A DNA stretch of 60,603 nt, from positions 1-60,603 of the forward strand of contig JAASSY010000001.1 in the NCBI GenBank assembly GCA_021767645.1, given 5' to 3'. The stretch is from Candidatus Parcubacteria bacterium (lineage in GTDB: Bacteria; Patescibacteriota; Minisyncoccia; Phycocordibacterales; UBA918). The translations under genes were made by a program, and so were the position numbers. Each line of letters opens with the position of its first letter. Positions within the stretch are counted from its first letter, which is position 1. Positions 52,991 to 60,603 of the stretch are shown here, piece by piece. The notes under the pieces are model-generated. The model saw nothing but the letters and a program-made list of their open reading frames with translations, ran no database searches and had not been told where the DNA came from.

Positions 52991-53080
52991 CTACCAAATC
53001 AGATGCGCGATAAAGAAGCCTAGGCCAGCACCAAAGAGAAATACGAAGAACAATGTTACCTTGAGTCCCTCATCATCCAT
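52991..53080 (-). CDS. Possible 29-aa hydrophobic peptide (not in ORF track)
   Basis: Hand translation gives MDDEGLKVTLFFVFLFGAGLGFFIAHLIW. No clear SD, so this is weak. Confidence 0.2.
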   Translation of the reverse strand: MDDEGLKVTLFFVFLFGAGLGFFIAHLIW

Positions 53081-54845
53081 TGGTTGCAGTATACCGCACT
53101 GAAACAAAAGACTCGACTTTTACGTGAAAAACTAGTATAAATATGGCCACTTCATAGCGAAGTATGGCGGCTATGGTGTAGAGGTAACACGCAAGTTTGT
53201 GGCACTTGAATCTCGGGTTCAATTCCCGGTAGCCGCCCCAAGTGAGAATCAGCTCTGCAAAACGTGCATTTCGCGTTGCAGTGTCTAGGTTTTTGTCCAG
53301 TTCGAGCCGATTGTATTCGGCTTCTAGCTCTGGATACGCTTTTTCTATTGGAACAAACCAATCGTTAGGTGTTATAAGGACTTTTTTGTCTTTCAACGTA
53401 AAGTTCTGACCAAGTGCTGAAAATATCTCTCGTTTTTCTTGAATGCTTCCGTGCACGAATGTTGCCCGTGCGTGCCGAGCAAAGTTGAAGGTCCGCTCGC
53501 TGAGTTCTAACCACGTGGCTGCCCTATTCTCAGTAGAGTTGAGTTGCAGCTTCAGTTTACCGAGCTTCTTCTTCAAGTCACTACGCTGTGTCTTGAACTC
53601 TTCGTCATCAATTAGATTCCGGTAGCGCATCTTTGTTAGTGTGTCTAATTCATTTTGTGTTTGGTTGTATGCCCTCTGCTGTTGTTCGTAGACCTTGGTC
53701 CGTGCATCAATCTCCTTGTCGTTTTCCTTGTTAATAATCTCCAAGGCCCACTCCTGAAACTTCGGGAGAATGGTGTAACGTTCGAGTTCAACATCTACCT
53801 GACGCTCAAACTCTTCCAGAGTAACTGGCTTCTGCCCACAGCTACATTTACCAGAAGCATCCTTCTTCTTTTTTGTGCAGTGATAGTATGCGTAGGTTTT
53901 TAATTCTCCAGTTTTCTTAACAATCTTTTGCTTGGCTGAATATGTGCACATACCACCGCATTCACCACAAATAACCATACCTGTAAAGGCAGATTCATGG
54001 ACTTGATTTCGAGGCTTCCCTTTGCGACCAAGTATGACCTGGGCTTTGTCATATTCTTCCACAGTAATCATCGGTTTATGGTTACCGTTTTCGTATACGG
54101 TACCTGACCATTCAAACATCCCCGTGTAAAAGATGTTGGTAAAGATGCGATATAACGAACTTTCTGCAATTGGTCCTCCTCCAGACTTCTTAAACTTAGG
54201 CGTCCTGAAACCCCATTCTTCATTCGCTATCTTACGGATTTTAGGGACGGTATAGTTACCAGATAGCAGCATGTCCCACATTTTACGAACCATATCCCAG
54301 CGTTCTTCGTCCGGGTAGATTTCATTCACAATTTTATCGTTGTAATACCCAAGCGGAGCCCGTGAAGGTAACCACCCACTATTTGCTTTGCTTTCCATGC
54401 CACGCCGCGAAGTCTTGGCTAGATCACGTACAAATTGGTTCGCCATTGCTCCCTCTACATGAAACAGCAATACATTGTCTTCTGGGTAGTATGCACGGTC
54501 ATAGGTTTGAATGACTTTAATTACTTCTGTCTGCAACATCCAGGCAACAGTTCCCTGGTCAACCGGATTGCGGAATAAACGGTTAAGGTGCCATGTCAAA
54601 ATACCGTCTGCTTCACCCGCTTCAATGCGAGACAGCATTTCATAAAAGATTGTTCTCACTTGGGGTTGTTTGGCAGACTTTGATTCCTGCAGCACATCCA
54701 CAATTTGATACCCCATTTGTGCAGCACGAGATTTGTAGTAAGCAATCTGGTCTGGAATAGACTGCAACTGCTTATCAGACGATTCATCCGAAGATCGTCG
54801 TGCATAGAGGAATACTTTTAACTTCTTGTTTTGCATTTTATTCAT
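53073..54845 (-). CDS. Large serine recombinase (integrase)
   Basis: Resolvase catalytic N-terminus (VFLYARRSSDESSDKQLQSIPDQ), recombinase domain, zinc ribbon (CGECGG..YYHCTKKKK..CSCG), and coiled coil. The last ~56 codons run antisense through tRNA-His. Confidence 0.9.
   Translation of the reverse strand: MNKMQNKKLKVFLYARRSSDESSDKQLQSIPDQIAYYKSRAAQMGYQIVDVLQESKSAKQPQVRTIFYEMLSRIEAGEADGILTWHLNRLFRNPVDQGTVAWMLQTEVIKVIQTYDRAYYPEDNVLLFHVEGAMANQFVRDLAKTSRRGMESKANSGWLPSRAPLGYYNDKIVNEIYPDEERWDMVRKMWDMLLSGNYTVPKIRKIANEEWGFRTPKFKKSGGGPIAESSLYRIFTNIFYTGMFEWSGTVYENGNHKPMITVEEYDKAQVILGRKGKPRNQVHESAFTGMVICGECGGMCTYSAKQKIVKKTGELKTYAYYHCTKKKKDASGKCSCGQKPVTLEEFERQVDVELERYTILPKFQEWALEIINKENDKEIDARTKVYEQQQRAYNQTQNELDTLTKMRYRNLIDDEEFKTQRSDLKKKLGKLKLQLNSTENRAATWLELSERTFNFARHARATFVHGSIQEKREIFSALGQNFTLKDKKVLITPNDWFVPIEKAYPELEAEYNRLELDKNLDTATRNARFAELILTWGGYRELNPRFKCHKLACYLYTIAAILRYEVAIFILVFHVKVESFVSVRYTATNG
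53166..53240 (+). tRNA. tRNA-His (GTG)
   Basis: Manual cloverleaf: G-1 plus acceptor GCGGCTA/TAGCCGC, D arm GTGT-agaggta-ACAC, anticodon arm CAAGT-ttGTGgc-ACTTG, T arm TCGGG-ttcaatt-CCCGG, discriminator C, encoded CCA. The G-1:C73 pair is the tRNA-His hallmark. Confidence 0.9.
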
Positions 54846-55178: not shown

Positions 55179-55931
55179 CTAATAGTTACGAATGATTTGA
55201 TTGTCTATGGCTGTATTAAAAAGGTCTTGGGTAATGTGCAGCCTCTCTTTCACTAAGTCATTTACTGCTCGGCAGGCGTCTTTTATGTTACGACGCCCTG
55301 AAACCCTTGGTGCCATAGGATCGTCTTCAAAATAGCCAAGCATCACATCTACATCTGCCTGTTCACCCCGGGACTTCTGGTTGAACATGTAATCAGAAAC
55401 TGCATCCATGATTGTGCCACTCTCTATAGGTATTTGAATGGAGTCTATATGCAATATGTGATTCTCGTATGAGGTTACAGATGAAGCAATATCAGCCAGT
55501 GCGACATCGGCTCCTGACCGACTTCGACTCTCCCGTGACGCAATTAATTCCTTCCCCTGACGCACTACCTCCTGGACCTCCTGAGGCGTTGCAGTCCCAT
55601 AGGCTTCTTGTGCATCGTTATACGTCTTCAAATCACCCCGAGCATCCAATATCTGACGCCATGAATCCTCGGTTACCTGTGAAATGGTTTTATGAGGTAA
55701 CAAGTATTCCAATGTGAGAGGGTTAGTCTGACTCCCTGCCTCGATGGGGTCCAAGGAGGCTAGGGCGTAGTACTGCTCCAGCTTTTCCCGCAAACCACCC
55801 CGTAAATAGAATATGTCCAATTCCTGAGGTGAGACACGGGATTCCAAAGAGTGTTGCACCAGATCCCCGTATAAGTAATACAAATCCGTGAGGGCATTTA
55901 AGGCTTCTTTATTTACGGGGGTAGTGGGCAT
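55179..55931 (-). CDS. Hypothetical protein (250 aa)
   Basis: Clean ORF with protein-like composition. No domain was recognised. Confidence 0.6.
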   Translation of the reverse strand: MPTTPVNKEALNALTDLYYLYGDLVQHSLESRVSPQELDIFYLRGGLREKLEQYYALASLDPIEAGSQTNPLTLEYLLPHKTISQVTEDSWRQILDARGDLKTYNDAQEAYGTATPQEVQEVVRQGKELIASRESRSRSGADVALADIASSVTSYENHILHIDSIQIPIESGTIMDAVSDYMFNQKSRGEQADVDVMLGYFEDDPMAPRVSGRRNIKDACRAVNDLVKERLHITQDLFNTAIDNQIIRNY

Positions 55932-56169
55932 TTAAAAATACTACCGAATGTAGCACTAAATGACCAGACACAAATATCGCCAATTTACACACCATGATTC
56001 CCGTATACCCAACCCTGTTACCCTTGGTGATACGTTTGTTTGTGACTCTTCCCGATAACCAATCCCTGTTACTGGGTAAGTTTGCTAGTTTTGTTTGGCT
56101 TGTTATTAAGGTGTCTCCAGTTTATTTGTTTGGTTAAGTGTATATCCCAAACCTGACTTCTAGGACAAG

Positions 56170-56930
56170 AGAGGGCTAAAGCGGTCTGGGGGGTTGCCAT
56201 GTACCACTTTCACCTATGTATTGAGTCCGTTGTCTCCCGGAATACACGTACCTCACCGCTGTCGGCATCACACTCTCTGTGTTTCTTGTCGCCAGCATCT
56301 CCTTGTATCCATAACTCAATCCAAACAAGGGGTAGTCTCCTGACGTGCCGCGTGCTTGGAACCGCCAGTAAGGTCTCGGCGCAACAGTTCCAGAGGCTTC
56401 TAGAGTCACCTGTCCCAGAGTCAGCCAACGAACATATCACGAGCTGACTCCCAGGAGTCCCGAGTGCTGTCGGGACCGCATCAGGGCTTAGAATCCGAAG
56501 GTTTCACCGCGTCCAGGAGGCAGGTCCTTCGGTTCGCGTCCTACACCCTCCCAGTATTAGCTAGCTCAATGGCCACAACACACCGAGGCTTTATTAGCAC
56601 TTTCGGTGGCTGCCCCTCTTACCGAGGAAGCTTCATTGCAAAGTATTAAATTGGGATTTGAATATAGGATTTCGTCGAGGAGAACTATCTAGGCACTACT
56701 TTACTTGAGTCCCACTGGGTGTGACAAGTCCTAAAATTACACCATGCGTGTAAGAATCGTCATCAACATACACTTTGAAGGTAGGTGTGAGCCCGAGCGA
56801 CTACTATTCATAACAGTTTCCTTGACCCCGGAGTCACACACTGAACTGGTCCCCGTACCCATTTCCATCTCTTAGGTCTTATTACTTATGGAATGAAGAG
56901 TCTTAATCATTCAGGCAACTACTCTTCGTG
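56170..56930. ncRNA. Candidate large structured non-coding RNA (unclassified)
   Basis: GC-rich, stop-poor on several frames of both strands, yet without a convincing ORF. Many local perfect stems, e.g. GTCCCGA/TCGGGAC 56456-56475, GAGTCAGC/GCTGACTC 56419-56451, GAAtCCGAAGG/CCTTCGGTTC, CACCGA/TCGGTG. Confidence 0.3.
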
Positions 56931-56965
56931 CTGTGAGGCATCCGGCACTTGCCATAACAATCACT

Positions 56966-57298
56966 ATGAAAAAAGTAAGTGAGGTATTGGAACCCCAGAT
57001 AACGACTAACTATCAGGGGTCCGAGGCTACCTACGAAGACGTCAAGCAACAACTGCAAGAACGCTTTGGGAAGAAGGTAGCAGATAGCTATAACCCAGCT
57101 ACCAATTGCGCCCCGTTCAGCGTGTGGGCTAAAGCAGGTTATCGAGTAAAGAAGGGTGAGAAGGCACTTAAATCAGTGACTTTTGTAGAGCGTGAAAACG
57201 ATGAGACCGGTGAGGTAGAAAAGATTCGCCGAGTGGTTAATCTCTTTCATCGGGTACAGGTTGAGTTAGCCGAACCAATAACTGAGCAACCAGCATGA
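56966..57298 (+). CDS. ArdC N-terminal-domain-like (DUF1738-like) ssDNA-binding protein
   Basis: 110 aa starting at the ATG at 56966. ..NCAPFSVWAKAGYRVKKGEKALKSVTFVE.. resembles the ArdC-N motif (W..G..VkKGEK). Confidence 0.45.
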   Translation: MKKVSEVLEPQITTNYQGSEATYEDVKQQLQERFGKKVADSYNPATNCAPFSVWAKAGYRVKKGEKALKSVTFVERENDETGEVEKIRRVVNLFHRVQVELAEPITEQPA

Positions 57299-57468
57299 CT
57301 CGCCAAATGACCGTAGTGTCCGAGCGTAGAGCCAAGGATGAACCATGTATACGAATCAGTGATAGCAGACTGGCTACTGCTGGTTTTTCTTTGGGAGACA
57401 TTATTTCCGTCACCATCAAACCCAAAACTGTAATTATCAAACGACTAAACAAACTAAATCATGAATAA
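57295..57468 (+). CDS. AbrB/SpoVT(SymE)-like small protein (57 aa), not in ORF track
   Basis: Hand translation gives MTRQMTVVSERRAKDEPCIRISDSRLATAGFSLGDIISVTIKPKTVIIKRLNKLNHE. ATGA overlap with the upstream stop, and an 8-nt overlap with the downstream start. Confidence 0.45.
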   Translation: MTRQMTVVSERRAKDEPCIRISDSRLATAGFSLGDIISVTIKPKTVIIKRLNKLNHE

Positions 57469-58006
57469 CACCACAACCACGAAGCCTCGACTCCAAGGCA
57501 ACTACGCATCAATGCAACCATCCCAGCCAGAGGTGCATCCAATCAAGGCTGAGATTGAGAAGAACATTGGTAGCTTCACATTCGTTGCCCGATTCGAAGA
57601 GGACAATGAAGCAAAGCAAGCCTTCAATCACGGCGGCCTTATCGCTTACAGATGTGTGCTCTCTACCCCTGATGGACGCACACTCGGCATTGGTCACGGC
57701 TTGAATGTGTTGAGTCAACAAAACCGTTACATTAGTAAATCAGTAAAGTGGGCGCACTCAGGAGCCTTGATAGCCGCTGTTACCAATGCAGTGAAGTTCC
57801 CGGATTTAAGTGGCTCTCCAACCTCTGACTTCGGCATGAACCAAGACATAGCTTCTGAGTTTATGGCTACTGACCGCCAGAAATCATACCTAACTGAATT
57901 GATTGGTAACCTCTCTGACGAGAGCGAACGAGAGGAGCTAATGAGTGAGCTAGGCACTATGAGCAAGGAGCGTGCTTCTGAGCTTATTGGACAACTGAAG
58001 AACTAA
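57461..58006 (+). CDS. Hypothetical protein (181 aa)
   Basis: Third gene of the tightly overlapping operon. No domain was recognised. Confidence 0.6.
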   Translation: MNNTTTTKPRLQGNYASMQPSQPEVHPIKAEIEKNIGSFTFVARFEEDNEAKQAFNHGGLIAYRCVLSTPDGRTLGIGHGLNVLSQQNRYISKSVKWAHSGALIAAVTNAVKFPDLSGSPTSDFGMNQDIASEFMATDRQKSYLTELIGNLSDESEREELMSELGTMSKERASELIGQLKN

Positions 58007-58244
58007 TCACAAAGCCCTGGCTGTCACCGTGCAGTCTGGGCTTTTGTGGTGAAGGAGGGTTTTATTACAAAACAATTAAATACACACGTGACCTAAGGTC
58101 GTTCAGGCTATGGTCCAAAACCGTGGAAGACAGAAAACCCGTTATCAGGGCGTCTTCCACGTTGCATGGGGAAACTCATGTAGAGGCTTCGGCCTTCCTG
58201 GTAGCGGGCTTTGTGTATTTGCTCCTACCATAACGTAAAACACT

Positions 58245-58926: not shown

Positions 58927-59991
58927 ATGTATAATGACTACATGCAAGCTGTCGAGACACCAAAAATACCCAAGACCAAAGCCCTAAAAGGCTCAGTTGG
59001 TGGTCGTAGTACAAAGAAGACAAAACCACGAGTCGTCTCGTTGTTTTCTGGTTCGGGAGGTATGGACCTTGGATTTAAAAAAGCTGGATTTGATATCCTT
59101 TGGGCTAACGACGTAGACCACTGGGCTTGCCAGACTTTTAAGAAAAATTTTGGTGACCACATCGTCGAAGGTAGTATCTGTGACATCAAAAGTCAGGAGG
59201 TGCCGGACTGTGACATCATTCTTGGTGGCTTTCCGTGCCAGGACTTTTCAATGATATGGAAAAGGATGGGTATCAAGTCTGAACGAGGAAATCTGTACCG
59301 TCATTTTGTGCGGATCGTTACTGACAAACGTCCTAAAATGTTTGTGGCAGAGAACGTCAAAGGGCTGATTAGTGCCAACAAAGGAAAAGCTGTTGAGCAG
59401 ATAGTTAAAGACTTCGCAAGCGCTGGCTACACTGTTTCGGTAAACAAGATTAATTTTGCCGACTATGGCGCGCCCCAACTACGCGAACGGGTGTTAATTG
59501 TAGGTACCCGCGATGATTTGAATAAAGATTTTTCGCTACCAAACCCAACTCATACGCCAGAAAATTACGTATCGGCAAAGGAGGCTTTGAAGGAAGTCGA
59601 GCGGGTGAAATACAACAATGAACATCAAAATATTGCGCCTTCAACTGTAGCAAAACTAAGACTAATCCCGCCAGGTGGTAATTTTACTGACATACCAAAA
59701 GACTCACCCCATTACGTCAAAGGGATGATATCTCACGTGTATCGTCGCTTGCATCCAAACAAACCTTCCACTACTATCATTGCTGGAGGTGGTGGTGGCA
59801 CATGGGGCTATCACTACAAGGATCCGCGTCCGTTGACCAATCGCGAAAGAGCTCGATTATTTGGATACCCTGATAATTTCGAGTTTGTGGGTTCAATCGC
59901 TGAAGTACGCAGACAAATCGGAAACTCAGTTCCCCCTGCCGGTATCTACCCAATAGCTAAAGCTGTAAAAAAGTACCTGGCTGAATTATAA
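58927..59991 (+). CDS. DNA (cytosine-5)-methyltransferase
   Basis: Motifs I FSGSGGMDLGF, IV GGFPCQDFS, VI AENVKGL, VIII QLRERVLIVG, IX RPLTNRERARLFGYPDNF, X GNSVPP. ATG at 58927. Confidence 0.95.
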   Translation: MYNDYMQAVETPKIPKTKALKGSVGGRSTKKTKPRVVSLFSGSGGMDLGFKKAGFDILWANDVDHWACQTFKKNFGDHIVEGSICDIKSQEVPDCDIILGGFPCQDFSMIWKRMGIKSERGNLYRHFVRIVTDKRPKMFVAENVKGLISANKGKAVEQIVKDFASAGYTVSVNKINFADYGAPQLRERVLIVGTRDDLNKDFSLPNPTHTPENYVSAKEALKEVERVKYNNEHQNIAPSTVAKLRLIPPGGNFTDIPKDSPHYVKGMISHVYRRLHPNKPSTTIIAGGGGGTWGYHYKDPRPLTNRERARLFGYPDNFEFVGSIAEVRRQIGNSVPPAGIYPIAKAVKKYLAEL

Positions 59992-60009
59992 GAAAATAAC
60001 CAATACCGC

Positions 60010-60603
60010 ATGGAACTACTCTTTTCCAATGTCAAACCATGCGAGTATAACAACTCATCTTTTAGTGAGGCATTTGAACTCGGTGTGGTTGATGCCGATG
60101 AAATTAGCATTGCCACAGGATATGTCTCAGAAGAATCTCTACTGGAGCTAAAGGCAATTTTATCCTTTTACTCGGACAATAATCAGTCAAAAAGCTGTAG
60201 CCTGGTAATAGGAATGCACGGAAGAGAAGGTTTTACTCGCCCGCAATATGAAGCAGCAGTTGAGCTGGGTAATTTTTTGAAGGATAAAAATCTTGGTGCT
60301 GTATTTGTCTGTACGGCTTTTAGATATCACGGGAAGACCTATCTTTTTAGCCGAAACGGAGGTCCTGTATCCGCTCTACTAGGCTCGTCGAACCTGAGTA
60401 ATATACTCGACAACCGGCAGTGGGAAGTGGATGCTAAAGTTACCGAAGCCACTGCACTTAAGGAGCTAACACAGCTACACACTGATCTCACCAGTAAAGC
60501 GTGCAGAAACATCCTTGAGATTGATGCTCCGGAGTCTTTTACCGAGACAAATGATTTGTTACAGGACCGGATTGGTGTTGAAAAAGCTGACTCCGATATG
60601 TAC
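60010..60603 (+). CDS. PLD-family (NgoFVII/BfiI-like) restriction endonuclease, 5' partial (runs off the window)
   Basis: Not in the ORF track because there is no stop. Hand translation gives MELLFSNVKPCEYNN... with an HKD-type motif YHGKTYLFSRNGGPVSALLGSSNLS. Starts 18 nt after the methyltransferase. Confidence 0.6.
   Translation, partial: MELLFSNVKPCEYNNSSFSEAFELGVVDADEISIATGYVSEESLLELKAILSFYSDNNQSKSCSLVIGMHGREGFTRPQYEAAVELGNFLKDKNLGAVFVCTAFRYHGKTYLFSRNGGPVSALLGSSNLSNILDNRQWEVDAKVTEATALKELTQLHTDLTSKACRNILEIDAPESFTETNDLLQDRIGVEKADSDMY

Follow-up and report, generated by a model that had tools for sequence, protein, structure and literature searches.

The DNA analyzed here, called the window throughout, is a stretch of 60,603 nucleotides from a Candidatus Parcubacteria assembly (GCA_021767645.1, contig JAASSY010000001.1, forward strand). 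Within an island in this stretch, two divergently oriented genes are separated by a gap of 1034 bp (55932-56965). The gene on the left encodes a 250-amino acid protein, termed p250 (55179-55931, minus strand), and the gene on the right encodes a 110-amino acid protein with a weak match to the N-terminal domain of ArdC (56966-57298, plus strand). If one spurious open reading frame (ORF) of 82 amino acids is disregarded, the gap is the longest ORF-free stretch in the window; the runner-up measures 517 bp. The core of the gap holds a conserved structured RNA of ~540 nt on the minus strand (56151-56691), which is the subject of this analysis. An initial annotation of the DNA had drawn attention to the gap of about 1 kb, to its GC-rich core, and to four short ORFs with sequences unlike those of proteins. 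All of these observations were reproduced. The GC content of 56151-56691 is 0.527, compared with 0.455 in the island and 0.388 and 0.456 in the two flanks of the gap. The four ORFs, which are 61-82 amino acids long (56176-56409 and 56210-56440 on the minus strand, 56199-56447 and 56464-56649 on the plus strand), are all present in the window, and none of them is conserved.

Homologs and Conservation of the RNA

Homologs of p250 were found in metagenomes, and every contig that carries one has a gene-free gap of ~1.0-1.16 kb upstream of it. Over the core, these gaps share 67-80% nucleotide identity with the window. The search for homologs of the RNA itself was performed with an exact 21-base pattern taken from the most conserved block, followed by nhmmer. 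The pattern retrieved one genome from GTDB, a metagenome-assembled genome (MAG) named "uncultured Candidatus Saccharibacteria," and 17 more metagenome contigs. With nhmmer, full-length copies of the RNA were located in all retrieved contigs (window match 56718-56150, minus strand, E 6e-185). After removal of duplicates, 21 distinct RNA sequences from ~11 lineages were obtained, with 66-79% nucleotide identity to the window and a length of 535-582 nt in the homologs. The core corresponding to window positions ~56151-56691 is thus kept in 20 further distinct loci, which come from marine and saline-lake metagenomes and include the one Candidatus Saccharibacteria MAG. Protein identity of the neighbors is lower, with 47-67% for p250 and 39-76% for the ArdC-N-like protein. 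Conservation of the RNA at the nucleotide level above that of the flanking genes counts against a protein gene in the gap.

One p250 homolog is named as originating from Candidatus Saccharibacteria. Taken with the only GTDB match, this name suggests that Candidatus Saccharibacteria are the hosts of the elements that carry the RNA. Phage and plasmid collections contained no BLASTN match to the gap. Scans of IMG/VR with p250 and two RNA patterns were likewise negative, which means that the elements are not listed there as viruses.

The RNA was compared with the 4227 families of Rfam 15 by cmscan, using window positions 55800-57100 and six homologous loci. In the seven lineages covered, no family matched the RNA at E ≤ 10. 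The Rfam matches in the whole window are one tRNA and one LOOT RNA, and nothing else. No description of the RNA was found in the literature, where open-access papers and bioRxiv were covered and an unseen description is possible. The RNA appears to constitute a new, previously undescribed class, and large ornate RNAs in mobile elements have precedent. The initial annotation had proposed a large structured RNA, possibly of an undescribed class; the homologs, the covariation described below, and the absence of an Rfam family agree with this proposal.

Fold, Covariation, and Strand

The 21 distinct sequences were combined in alignment A2, from which a consensus structure was derived with RNAalifold. 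The structure contains 118 pairs, 37 of them compensatory. In a formal count on the same structure, 98.7% of the cells were paired compared with 37-44% in slid controls. Changes on both sides were observed for 38 of the 118 pairs (5-10 in the slid controls), and 184 cells showed double changes (6-18 in the slid controls). The values for pairing and covariation were higher than in each of 500 shuffles. Compensatory substitutions beyond those of controls, the general mark of a structured noncoding RNA, are clearly present. In addition, 207 of the 541 alignment columns (38%) are invariant, many of them in loops and junctions.

The question of the strand had been left open in the initial annotation. 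G-U pairs account for 14.4% of all cells, and when the identical pairs are read on the plus strand, pairing drops to 85.0% from the 98.7% of the minus strand. The RNAalifold energy is -232 for the minus strand and -193 for the plus strand. Based on the G-U pairs, the loss of pairing on the plus strand, and the energies, the RNA was assigned to the minus strand.

The predicted fold is one of ~25 helices, with the long-range helices H1 and H11 closing the whole molecule and with at least two pseudoknots. Five local helices had been pointed out earlier, within a structured segment estimated at ~0.75 kb. Four of them are real and covary: helix 12 (GAGTCAGC/GCTGACTC), helix 10 (GTCCCGA/TCGGGAC), helix 7 (CCGAAGG/CCTTCGG), and helix 5 (CACCGA/TCGGTG). 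The fifth (56894-56926) also exists but is situated beyond the RNA, as part of a pair of conserved hairpins that precedes the ArdC-N-like gene, and the segment was found to be structured over the ~540 nt of conserved RNA.

In pseudoknot PK1 (56513-56554, minus strand), CUGGGAGG (56554-56547) pairs with CCUCCUGG (56520-56513) in the hairpin loop of H7. Its 8 pairs are 100% paired in the 21 sequences, and 3 of them are compensatory (GGGAGG/CCUCC, GGAAGG/CCUUC, and GGGGAG/CUCCC). PK1 is mutually exclusive with helices H2 and H3 to the 5' region, which covary as well. The competition between these pairings points to alternative conformations or to a tertiary arrangement.

The central domain (56251-56391, minus strand) comprises hairpin X and helices H14, H15, C1, C2, and C3. 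Hairpin X pairs 56391-56387 with 56362-56358, and its loop provides the 5' strand of the long-range helix H14 (56373-56364 with 56259-56251; 5 compensatory pairs), which forms the second pseudoknot with X. C1 (CGUCAG/CUGGCG), C2 (CCCCUUG/CAAGGAG), and C3 (CACA/UGUG) covary. The domain has an identical fold in every homolog with differing helix sequences; for hairpin X, at least 7 different helix sequences were seen among the homologs in per-sequence folds. C2, C3, and X are put out of register by MAFFT, and the per-sequence folds, in place of pair counts, are the support for them. A covariance model of the middle domain (R1, 146 positions) recovered all 21 loci that carry the RNA (RNA-type loci) with scores of 71-164 bits.

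Promoter and Ends of the RNA

A consensus scan gave one promoter-like site on the minus strand (56698-56727), in which a -35 element TTGTCA (56727-56722) and a -10 element TAAAGT (56703-56698) are separated by an 18-nt spacer with TGGGACTC at 56714-56707. The TAnnnT of the -10 element and a TgGnACTC block just upstream of it are invariant in 21 of 21 A2 sequences, and -35 elements similar to TTGAC/TTGTC are found in most lineages. The conserved RNA block (AGAUAG...) begins 7-10 nt downstream of the -10 element, which places the putative 5' end near 56691 (within ~5 nt). From the conservation of this site we infer that the RNA is transcribed from a sigma-70-like promoter of its own and that it would be a stable, independent transcript. 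The 3' end was set at ~56151, where the closing helix H1 and the conservation both end. The consensus scan found no intrinsic terminator between the RNA and p250, so this end is uncertain.

Coding Potential of the Region

A protein gene in decay, such as a primase-helicase remnant, or a set of small real ORFs would account for the four ORFs of 61-82 amino acids in the window. It would also be in line with the relatives of the element described below, which have a primase-helicase gene at the same position. The initial annotation had regarded a decayed gene as the main alternative to an RNA, a view that was not sustained by the data, and we consider it extremely improbable. Searches of the gaps by tblastn with five primase-helicases (E ≤ 10) yielded noise only, with a best E of 0.17. 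In each homolog, all six frames are interrupted by 3 or more stops. Variable columns are distributed over the three codon phases as 108/118/108 in the RNA (p = 0.74), which indicates no codon periodicity, compared with 71/50/154 in the neighboring p250 gene (p = 5e-15). The nucleotide conservation above that of the flanking genes and the compensatory nature of the changes point in the same direction. By these tests the region is not protein-coding. A primase-helicase pseudogene is effectively excluded, as there is no residual protein similarity, no open frame, and no periodicity.

Organization of the Integrative Element

The gene order is constant in 21 of 21 loci. One strand carries the gene of the 110-amino acid ArdC-N-like protein, an optional gene for a SymE/AbrB-like protein of 57 amino acids, and a gene for a protein of 181 amino acids. 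The divergent side carries the RNA, p250, an optional gene for a 73-amino acid protein (p73), and a recombinase. Some loci have a large serine recombinase and others a tyrosine integrase, and the RNA is therefore not tied to one recombinase. The element adjoins a tRNA gene, which is tRNA-His in the window. Judged by this synteny, the RNA belongs to the core of small integrative mobile elements, which we assign to Candidatus Saccharibacteria from marine and saline-lake environments.

The large serine recombinase ORF of the window (53073-54845, minus strand) overlaps with its 3' end the tRNA-His(GTG) gene on the opposite strand (53167-53240, plus strand), and the juxtaposition of recombinase and tRNA is repeated in related loci. 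The overlap probably marks the attachment site and the edge of the island, with the other end of the island past the end of the contig. As cargo, the window copy carries a type II restriction-modification system with a C-5 cytosine methylase and an NgoFVII-family endonuclease (58927-60603; L001 591-2720). Elsewhere the cargo consists of OLD-family nuclease, Z1, NucS, NUDIX/NADAR, or HsdM genes. In view of this varied defense cargo, the elements appear to act as small defense islands.

Primase-Helicase Genes in the Position of the RNA

A profile search led to more distant p250 homologs with 31-41% identity. Four contigs were retrieved and analyzed together with locus L014. All five distant loci (L014 and L034-L037) have the same divergent operon, p250, and recombinase, and a primase-helicase gene is located upstream of p250. 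The encoded proteins are of two types, with an NrS1-1-like HBD and AAA_25 in 3 loci and with Prim-Pol, PriCT_1, and AAA_25 in 2. In the five primase-type loci, nhmmer detected no homolog of the RNA at E ≤ 10, and the best match of covariance model R1 had an E of 0.68. Conversely, no primase-helicase was detected by tblastn in the 21 RNA-type loci and the window, the gaps of which are devoid of protein remnants. According to these searches, the RNA and the primase-helicase are mutually exclusive at one slot.

Spacer and p250

The 3' end of the RNA is separated from p250 by an A-rich, indel-rich, and poorly conserved spacer of 190-270 nt with iteron-like direct repeats. In the window, the repeat region (55998-56097) contains two 24-nt copies (55998-56021 and 56049-56072) and a 15-nt pair (56028-56042 and 56083-56097). 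A repeat search gave a spacing of 51-55 nt, and locus L007 has the same 24-nt pair with a spacing of 51 nt. Motifs of the GGGTAACAGG type recur in the spacer of all RNA-type loci and are missing from primase-type loci. The iteron-like repeats were not found in primase-type gaps and are confined to RNA-type loci.

In every locus, the RNA is directly followed by the p250 gene, which has the same orientation. Its homologs form 33 clusters, none of which has a Pfam domain. The AlphaFold2 (AF2) model of p250 has a pLDDT (predicted local distance difference test) value of 86, and Foldseek searches against PDB and BFVD gave nothing at E < 0.001. The C-terminal ~90 amino acids are weakly similar to a winged-helix DNA-binding domain (5ju7; probability 0.84, template modeling (TM) score 0.61). 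A TAGTAT motif on the minus strand (55943-55938), 6-7 nt before the ATG of p250, is invariant in all RNA-type loci, and no Shine-Dalgarno sequence precedes the gene. The position of the invariant motif next to the ATG suggests that p250 may have its own promoter; the mRNA is possibly leaderless.

Divergent Operon and LOOT RNA

The 110-amino acid protein is encoded by the first gene of the rightward operon, which continues with the gene for the SymE/AbrB-like protein and the gene for the 181-amino acid protein. Its match to the single-stranded DNA (ssDNA)-binding N-terminal domain of ArdC is weak (Pfam PF08401, E 0.0029, below the curated cut-off; PDB ArdC, E 0.67). Searches of the neighboring proteins against Pfam, PHROGs, and NCBIfam gave only the weak ArdC-N and SymE matches. 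Two hairpins or inverted repeats, GAAGAGT..ACTCTTC and GTGCTG..CGGCAC (56893-56950, plus strand), are located 15-70 nt upstream of the ArdC-N-like gene. Both are kept in RNA-type and primase-type loci with symmetric changes, e.g. from GTGCTG/CGGCAC to GTACTG/CAGTAC. They probably represent an operator or the 5' untranslated region of the divergent operon and lie outside the RNA.

No protein of the element is more conserved than the 181-amino acid protein (57461-58006, plus strand), which has 63 clusters and 49-87% identity and belongs to no family. Its AF2 model has a pLDDT of 72, and the weak Foldseek matches (Rv1738, SnoaL-like folds, and RNase-H-like folds, the last at E 0.16-0.5) were not relied on. 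Just downstream of its gene in each case, a LOOT RNA (RF03000) was detected in the window (58090-58196, plus strand) and in loci L011 (3893-4007), L013 (1500-1614), and L029 (9035-9160), with scores of 54-57 bits compared with a gathering score of 46.4. LOOT is thereby placed in integrative elements that were assigned to Candidatus Saccharibacteria by one GTDB match, and this orphan Rfam family gains a genomic home.

Possible Roles of the RNA

Taken together, the observations are best explained by a stand-alone RNA gene of ~540 nt on the minus strand that belongs to the core of the element and is presumed to act in its replication module. We hold this account as a whole with moderate confidence. 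Its functional part, in which the RNA belongs to the replication or maintenance module and primes or activates DNA synthesis, is a tentative proposal by analogy. In ColE1, RNA II is a folded transcript of ~550 nt that starts from its own promoter and runs toward the origin, and replication proceeds without an element-encoded initiator or primase. Similarly, transcription from the RNA promoter would run toward the adjacent iteron-like, A-rich region, and the folded transcript could serve host enzymes as a primer or activator of DNA synthesis. Under this model, a primase encoded by the element would not be required, and the winged-helix-like p250 might bind the repeats. The location of the RNA in the primase-helicase slot and the restriction of the iteron-like repeats to RNA-type loci count for a role in replication. 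A still more specific version, a new class of pseudoknotted mobile-element RNA of the Candidate Phyla Radiation (CPR) that functionally replaces a primase-helicase as primer, origin activator, or catalytic RNA, is conceivable and slightly more doubtful than the role in replication as such.

Several points speak against this account. The mutual exclusivity of RNA and primase-helicase may go back to no more than one or two events in evolution, and with so few events it is weak evidence of functional substitution. The primase-type relatives have their own conserved noncoding ~470 nt upstream of the primase-helicase gene (L014 3262-3894, L034 3205-3885, and L036 3242-3886). This region has no sequence relationship to the RNA and may represent a different RNA or an origin; among its features are a long, perfectly paired hairpin (GGTAATTCTCCCTCTCTTTATAGAGGGAGATTACC) and CCCGACGGAAACGGGCTTT, which resembles a terminator. 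No ColE1-type intrinsic terminator, antisense-RNA promoter (judged by eye), or G-rich R-loop segment was obvious. The small number of events behind the exclusivity and the lack of these priming hallmarks are the reasons why the role in replication is proposed only tentatively. The pairings of H2/H3 and PK1 compete and covary equally, and a regulatory switch would account for them no less well than a primer would. The resemblance of p250 to a winged-helix domain, which comes from a model, is weak, and the transcript and both of its ends are inferred from sequence. Complementarity of the RNA to the rest of the island does not exceed 11 nt; on the same ground, the idea of a guide or antisense RNA was rejected. 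Finally, the minimum free energy of an 801-nt region was not distinguished from that of shuffled sequence (z-scores of -0.32 and +0.07 for the plus and minus strand, respectively). The description of the segment as stem-dense in the initial annotation thus has no thermodynamic support, and the case for the fold rests on covariation.

A trans-acting ornate RNA or ribonucleoprotein scaffold similar to GOLLD and ROOL, with an activity unrelated to replication, is about as likely as the role in replication. Self-assembling cages, anti-defense, helper-phage hijacking, and ribozyme activity are examples of what such an RNA might do. The size of the RNA, its 38% invariant columns with many in loops and junctions, and its two pseudoknots would suit a molecule of this kind, as would its residence in a tRNA-adjacent integrative element with defense cargo and a second small RNA, LOOT. 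We found no specific argument against it, except that it leaves the primase-helicase slot and the accompanying iteron-like repeats unexplained. Less likely is a very long cis-regulatory 5' leader of the p250-p73-recombinase operon that controls excision or integration. The RNA is located directly upstream of p250 on the same strand in every locus, no intrinsic terminator was found before p250, and H2/H3 and PK1 are exclusive yet both covary, as in expression platforms. However, the poorly conserved, indel-rich spacer of 190-270 nt with direct repeats of a DNA type intervenes before the ATG, and the invariant TAGTAT suggests that p250 has its own promoter and possibly a leaderless mRNA. Moreover, p250 of the primase-type relatives has no such leader, and 540 nt with ~25 helices is far beyond known riboswitch leaders.

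It is also unlikely, and clearly more so than a leader, that the fold acts as ssDNA in a single-strand origin or transfer origin. In favor of this reading, ssDNA can accommodate G-T pairs, the neighboring gene has the weak match to the ssDNA-binding N terminus of ArdC, and the element presumably moves as DNA between naturally competent hosts. On the other hand, the conserved promoter borders the conserved block precisely on its 5' side, and 14% G-U pairs and conserved pairings of a tertiary type are typical of RNA. Single-strand origins measure 150-300 nt and are not known to have a multi-domain pseudoknotted architecture.

Comparison with Known Systems

ROOL (RF03087) and GOLLD (RF01998) are pseudoknotted noncoding RNAs of 500-800 nt that occur on prophage-like or integrative elements, in many cases close to tRNA genes (PMC12286853). 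The RNA described here resembles them in size, in its multi-domain pseudoknotted fold, and in its residence on a tRNA-adjacent mobile element. It differs in that it has no similarity to them in sequence or structure. Neither the ROOL covariance model (~580 nt, multi-stem) nor the GOLLD model (~800 nt, 3' half conserved) matched window positions 55800-57100 or the six homologous loci at E ≤ 10. The analogy with GOLLD and ROOL drawn in the initial annotation therefore applies to the genomic context and does not extend to family membership. Further differences are the occurrence of the RNA in Saccharibacteria/CPR, its fixed slot, flanked by the divergent ArdC-N-like operon and by p250, and the primase-helicase that fills this slot in relatives of the element. 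The models for group I and II introns, RNase P, tmRNA, OLE, HEARO, and raiA likewise gave no match at E ≤ 10 in the seven lineages, and no intron-encoded protein or flanking exon was found at the RNA loci.

HEARO/IscB omega RNA, IS110 bridge RNA, and the P4 CI/C4 antisense RNA are comparable as noncoding RNAs beside recombination or replication genes of mobile elements. In contrast to these, the RNA has no Rfam match and no extended complementarity to the island, and no IscB/TnpB or IS110 DEDD recombinase gene was found near it. The LOOT RNA, although found in the same family of elements, is a separate gene of ~110 nt with unrelated sequence on the strand of the other operon. The RNA has the size of ColE1 RNA II and is directed toward iteron-like A-rich DNA, and its element carries no primase-helicase. 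Its locus differs in having no antisense gene similar to RNA I and no evident R-loop G-run, and the RNA is far more conserved and more intricately folded. The likeness would be functional only, and homology is not expected.

Few large bacterial RNAs with an intricate fold are known, and a function has been established for almost none of them. The comparative support for the present RNA is unusually strong for only ~11 lineages, and its source is the poorly explored Candidate Phyla Radiation. The loci also define a family of integrative elements with defense cargo in Saccharibacteria. Unlike GOLLD, ROOL, and OLE, the RNA comes with a sharp genetic clue, as close relatives of the element have a primase-helicase in its exact place and lack the RNA. 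This clue makes the function of an ornate RNA directly testable. If the proposed role in replication is correct, the RNA would represent an RNA-based replication-initiation module and the first ornate bacterial RNA that can be placed functionally.

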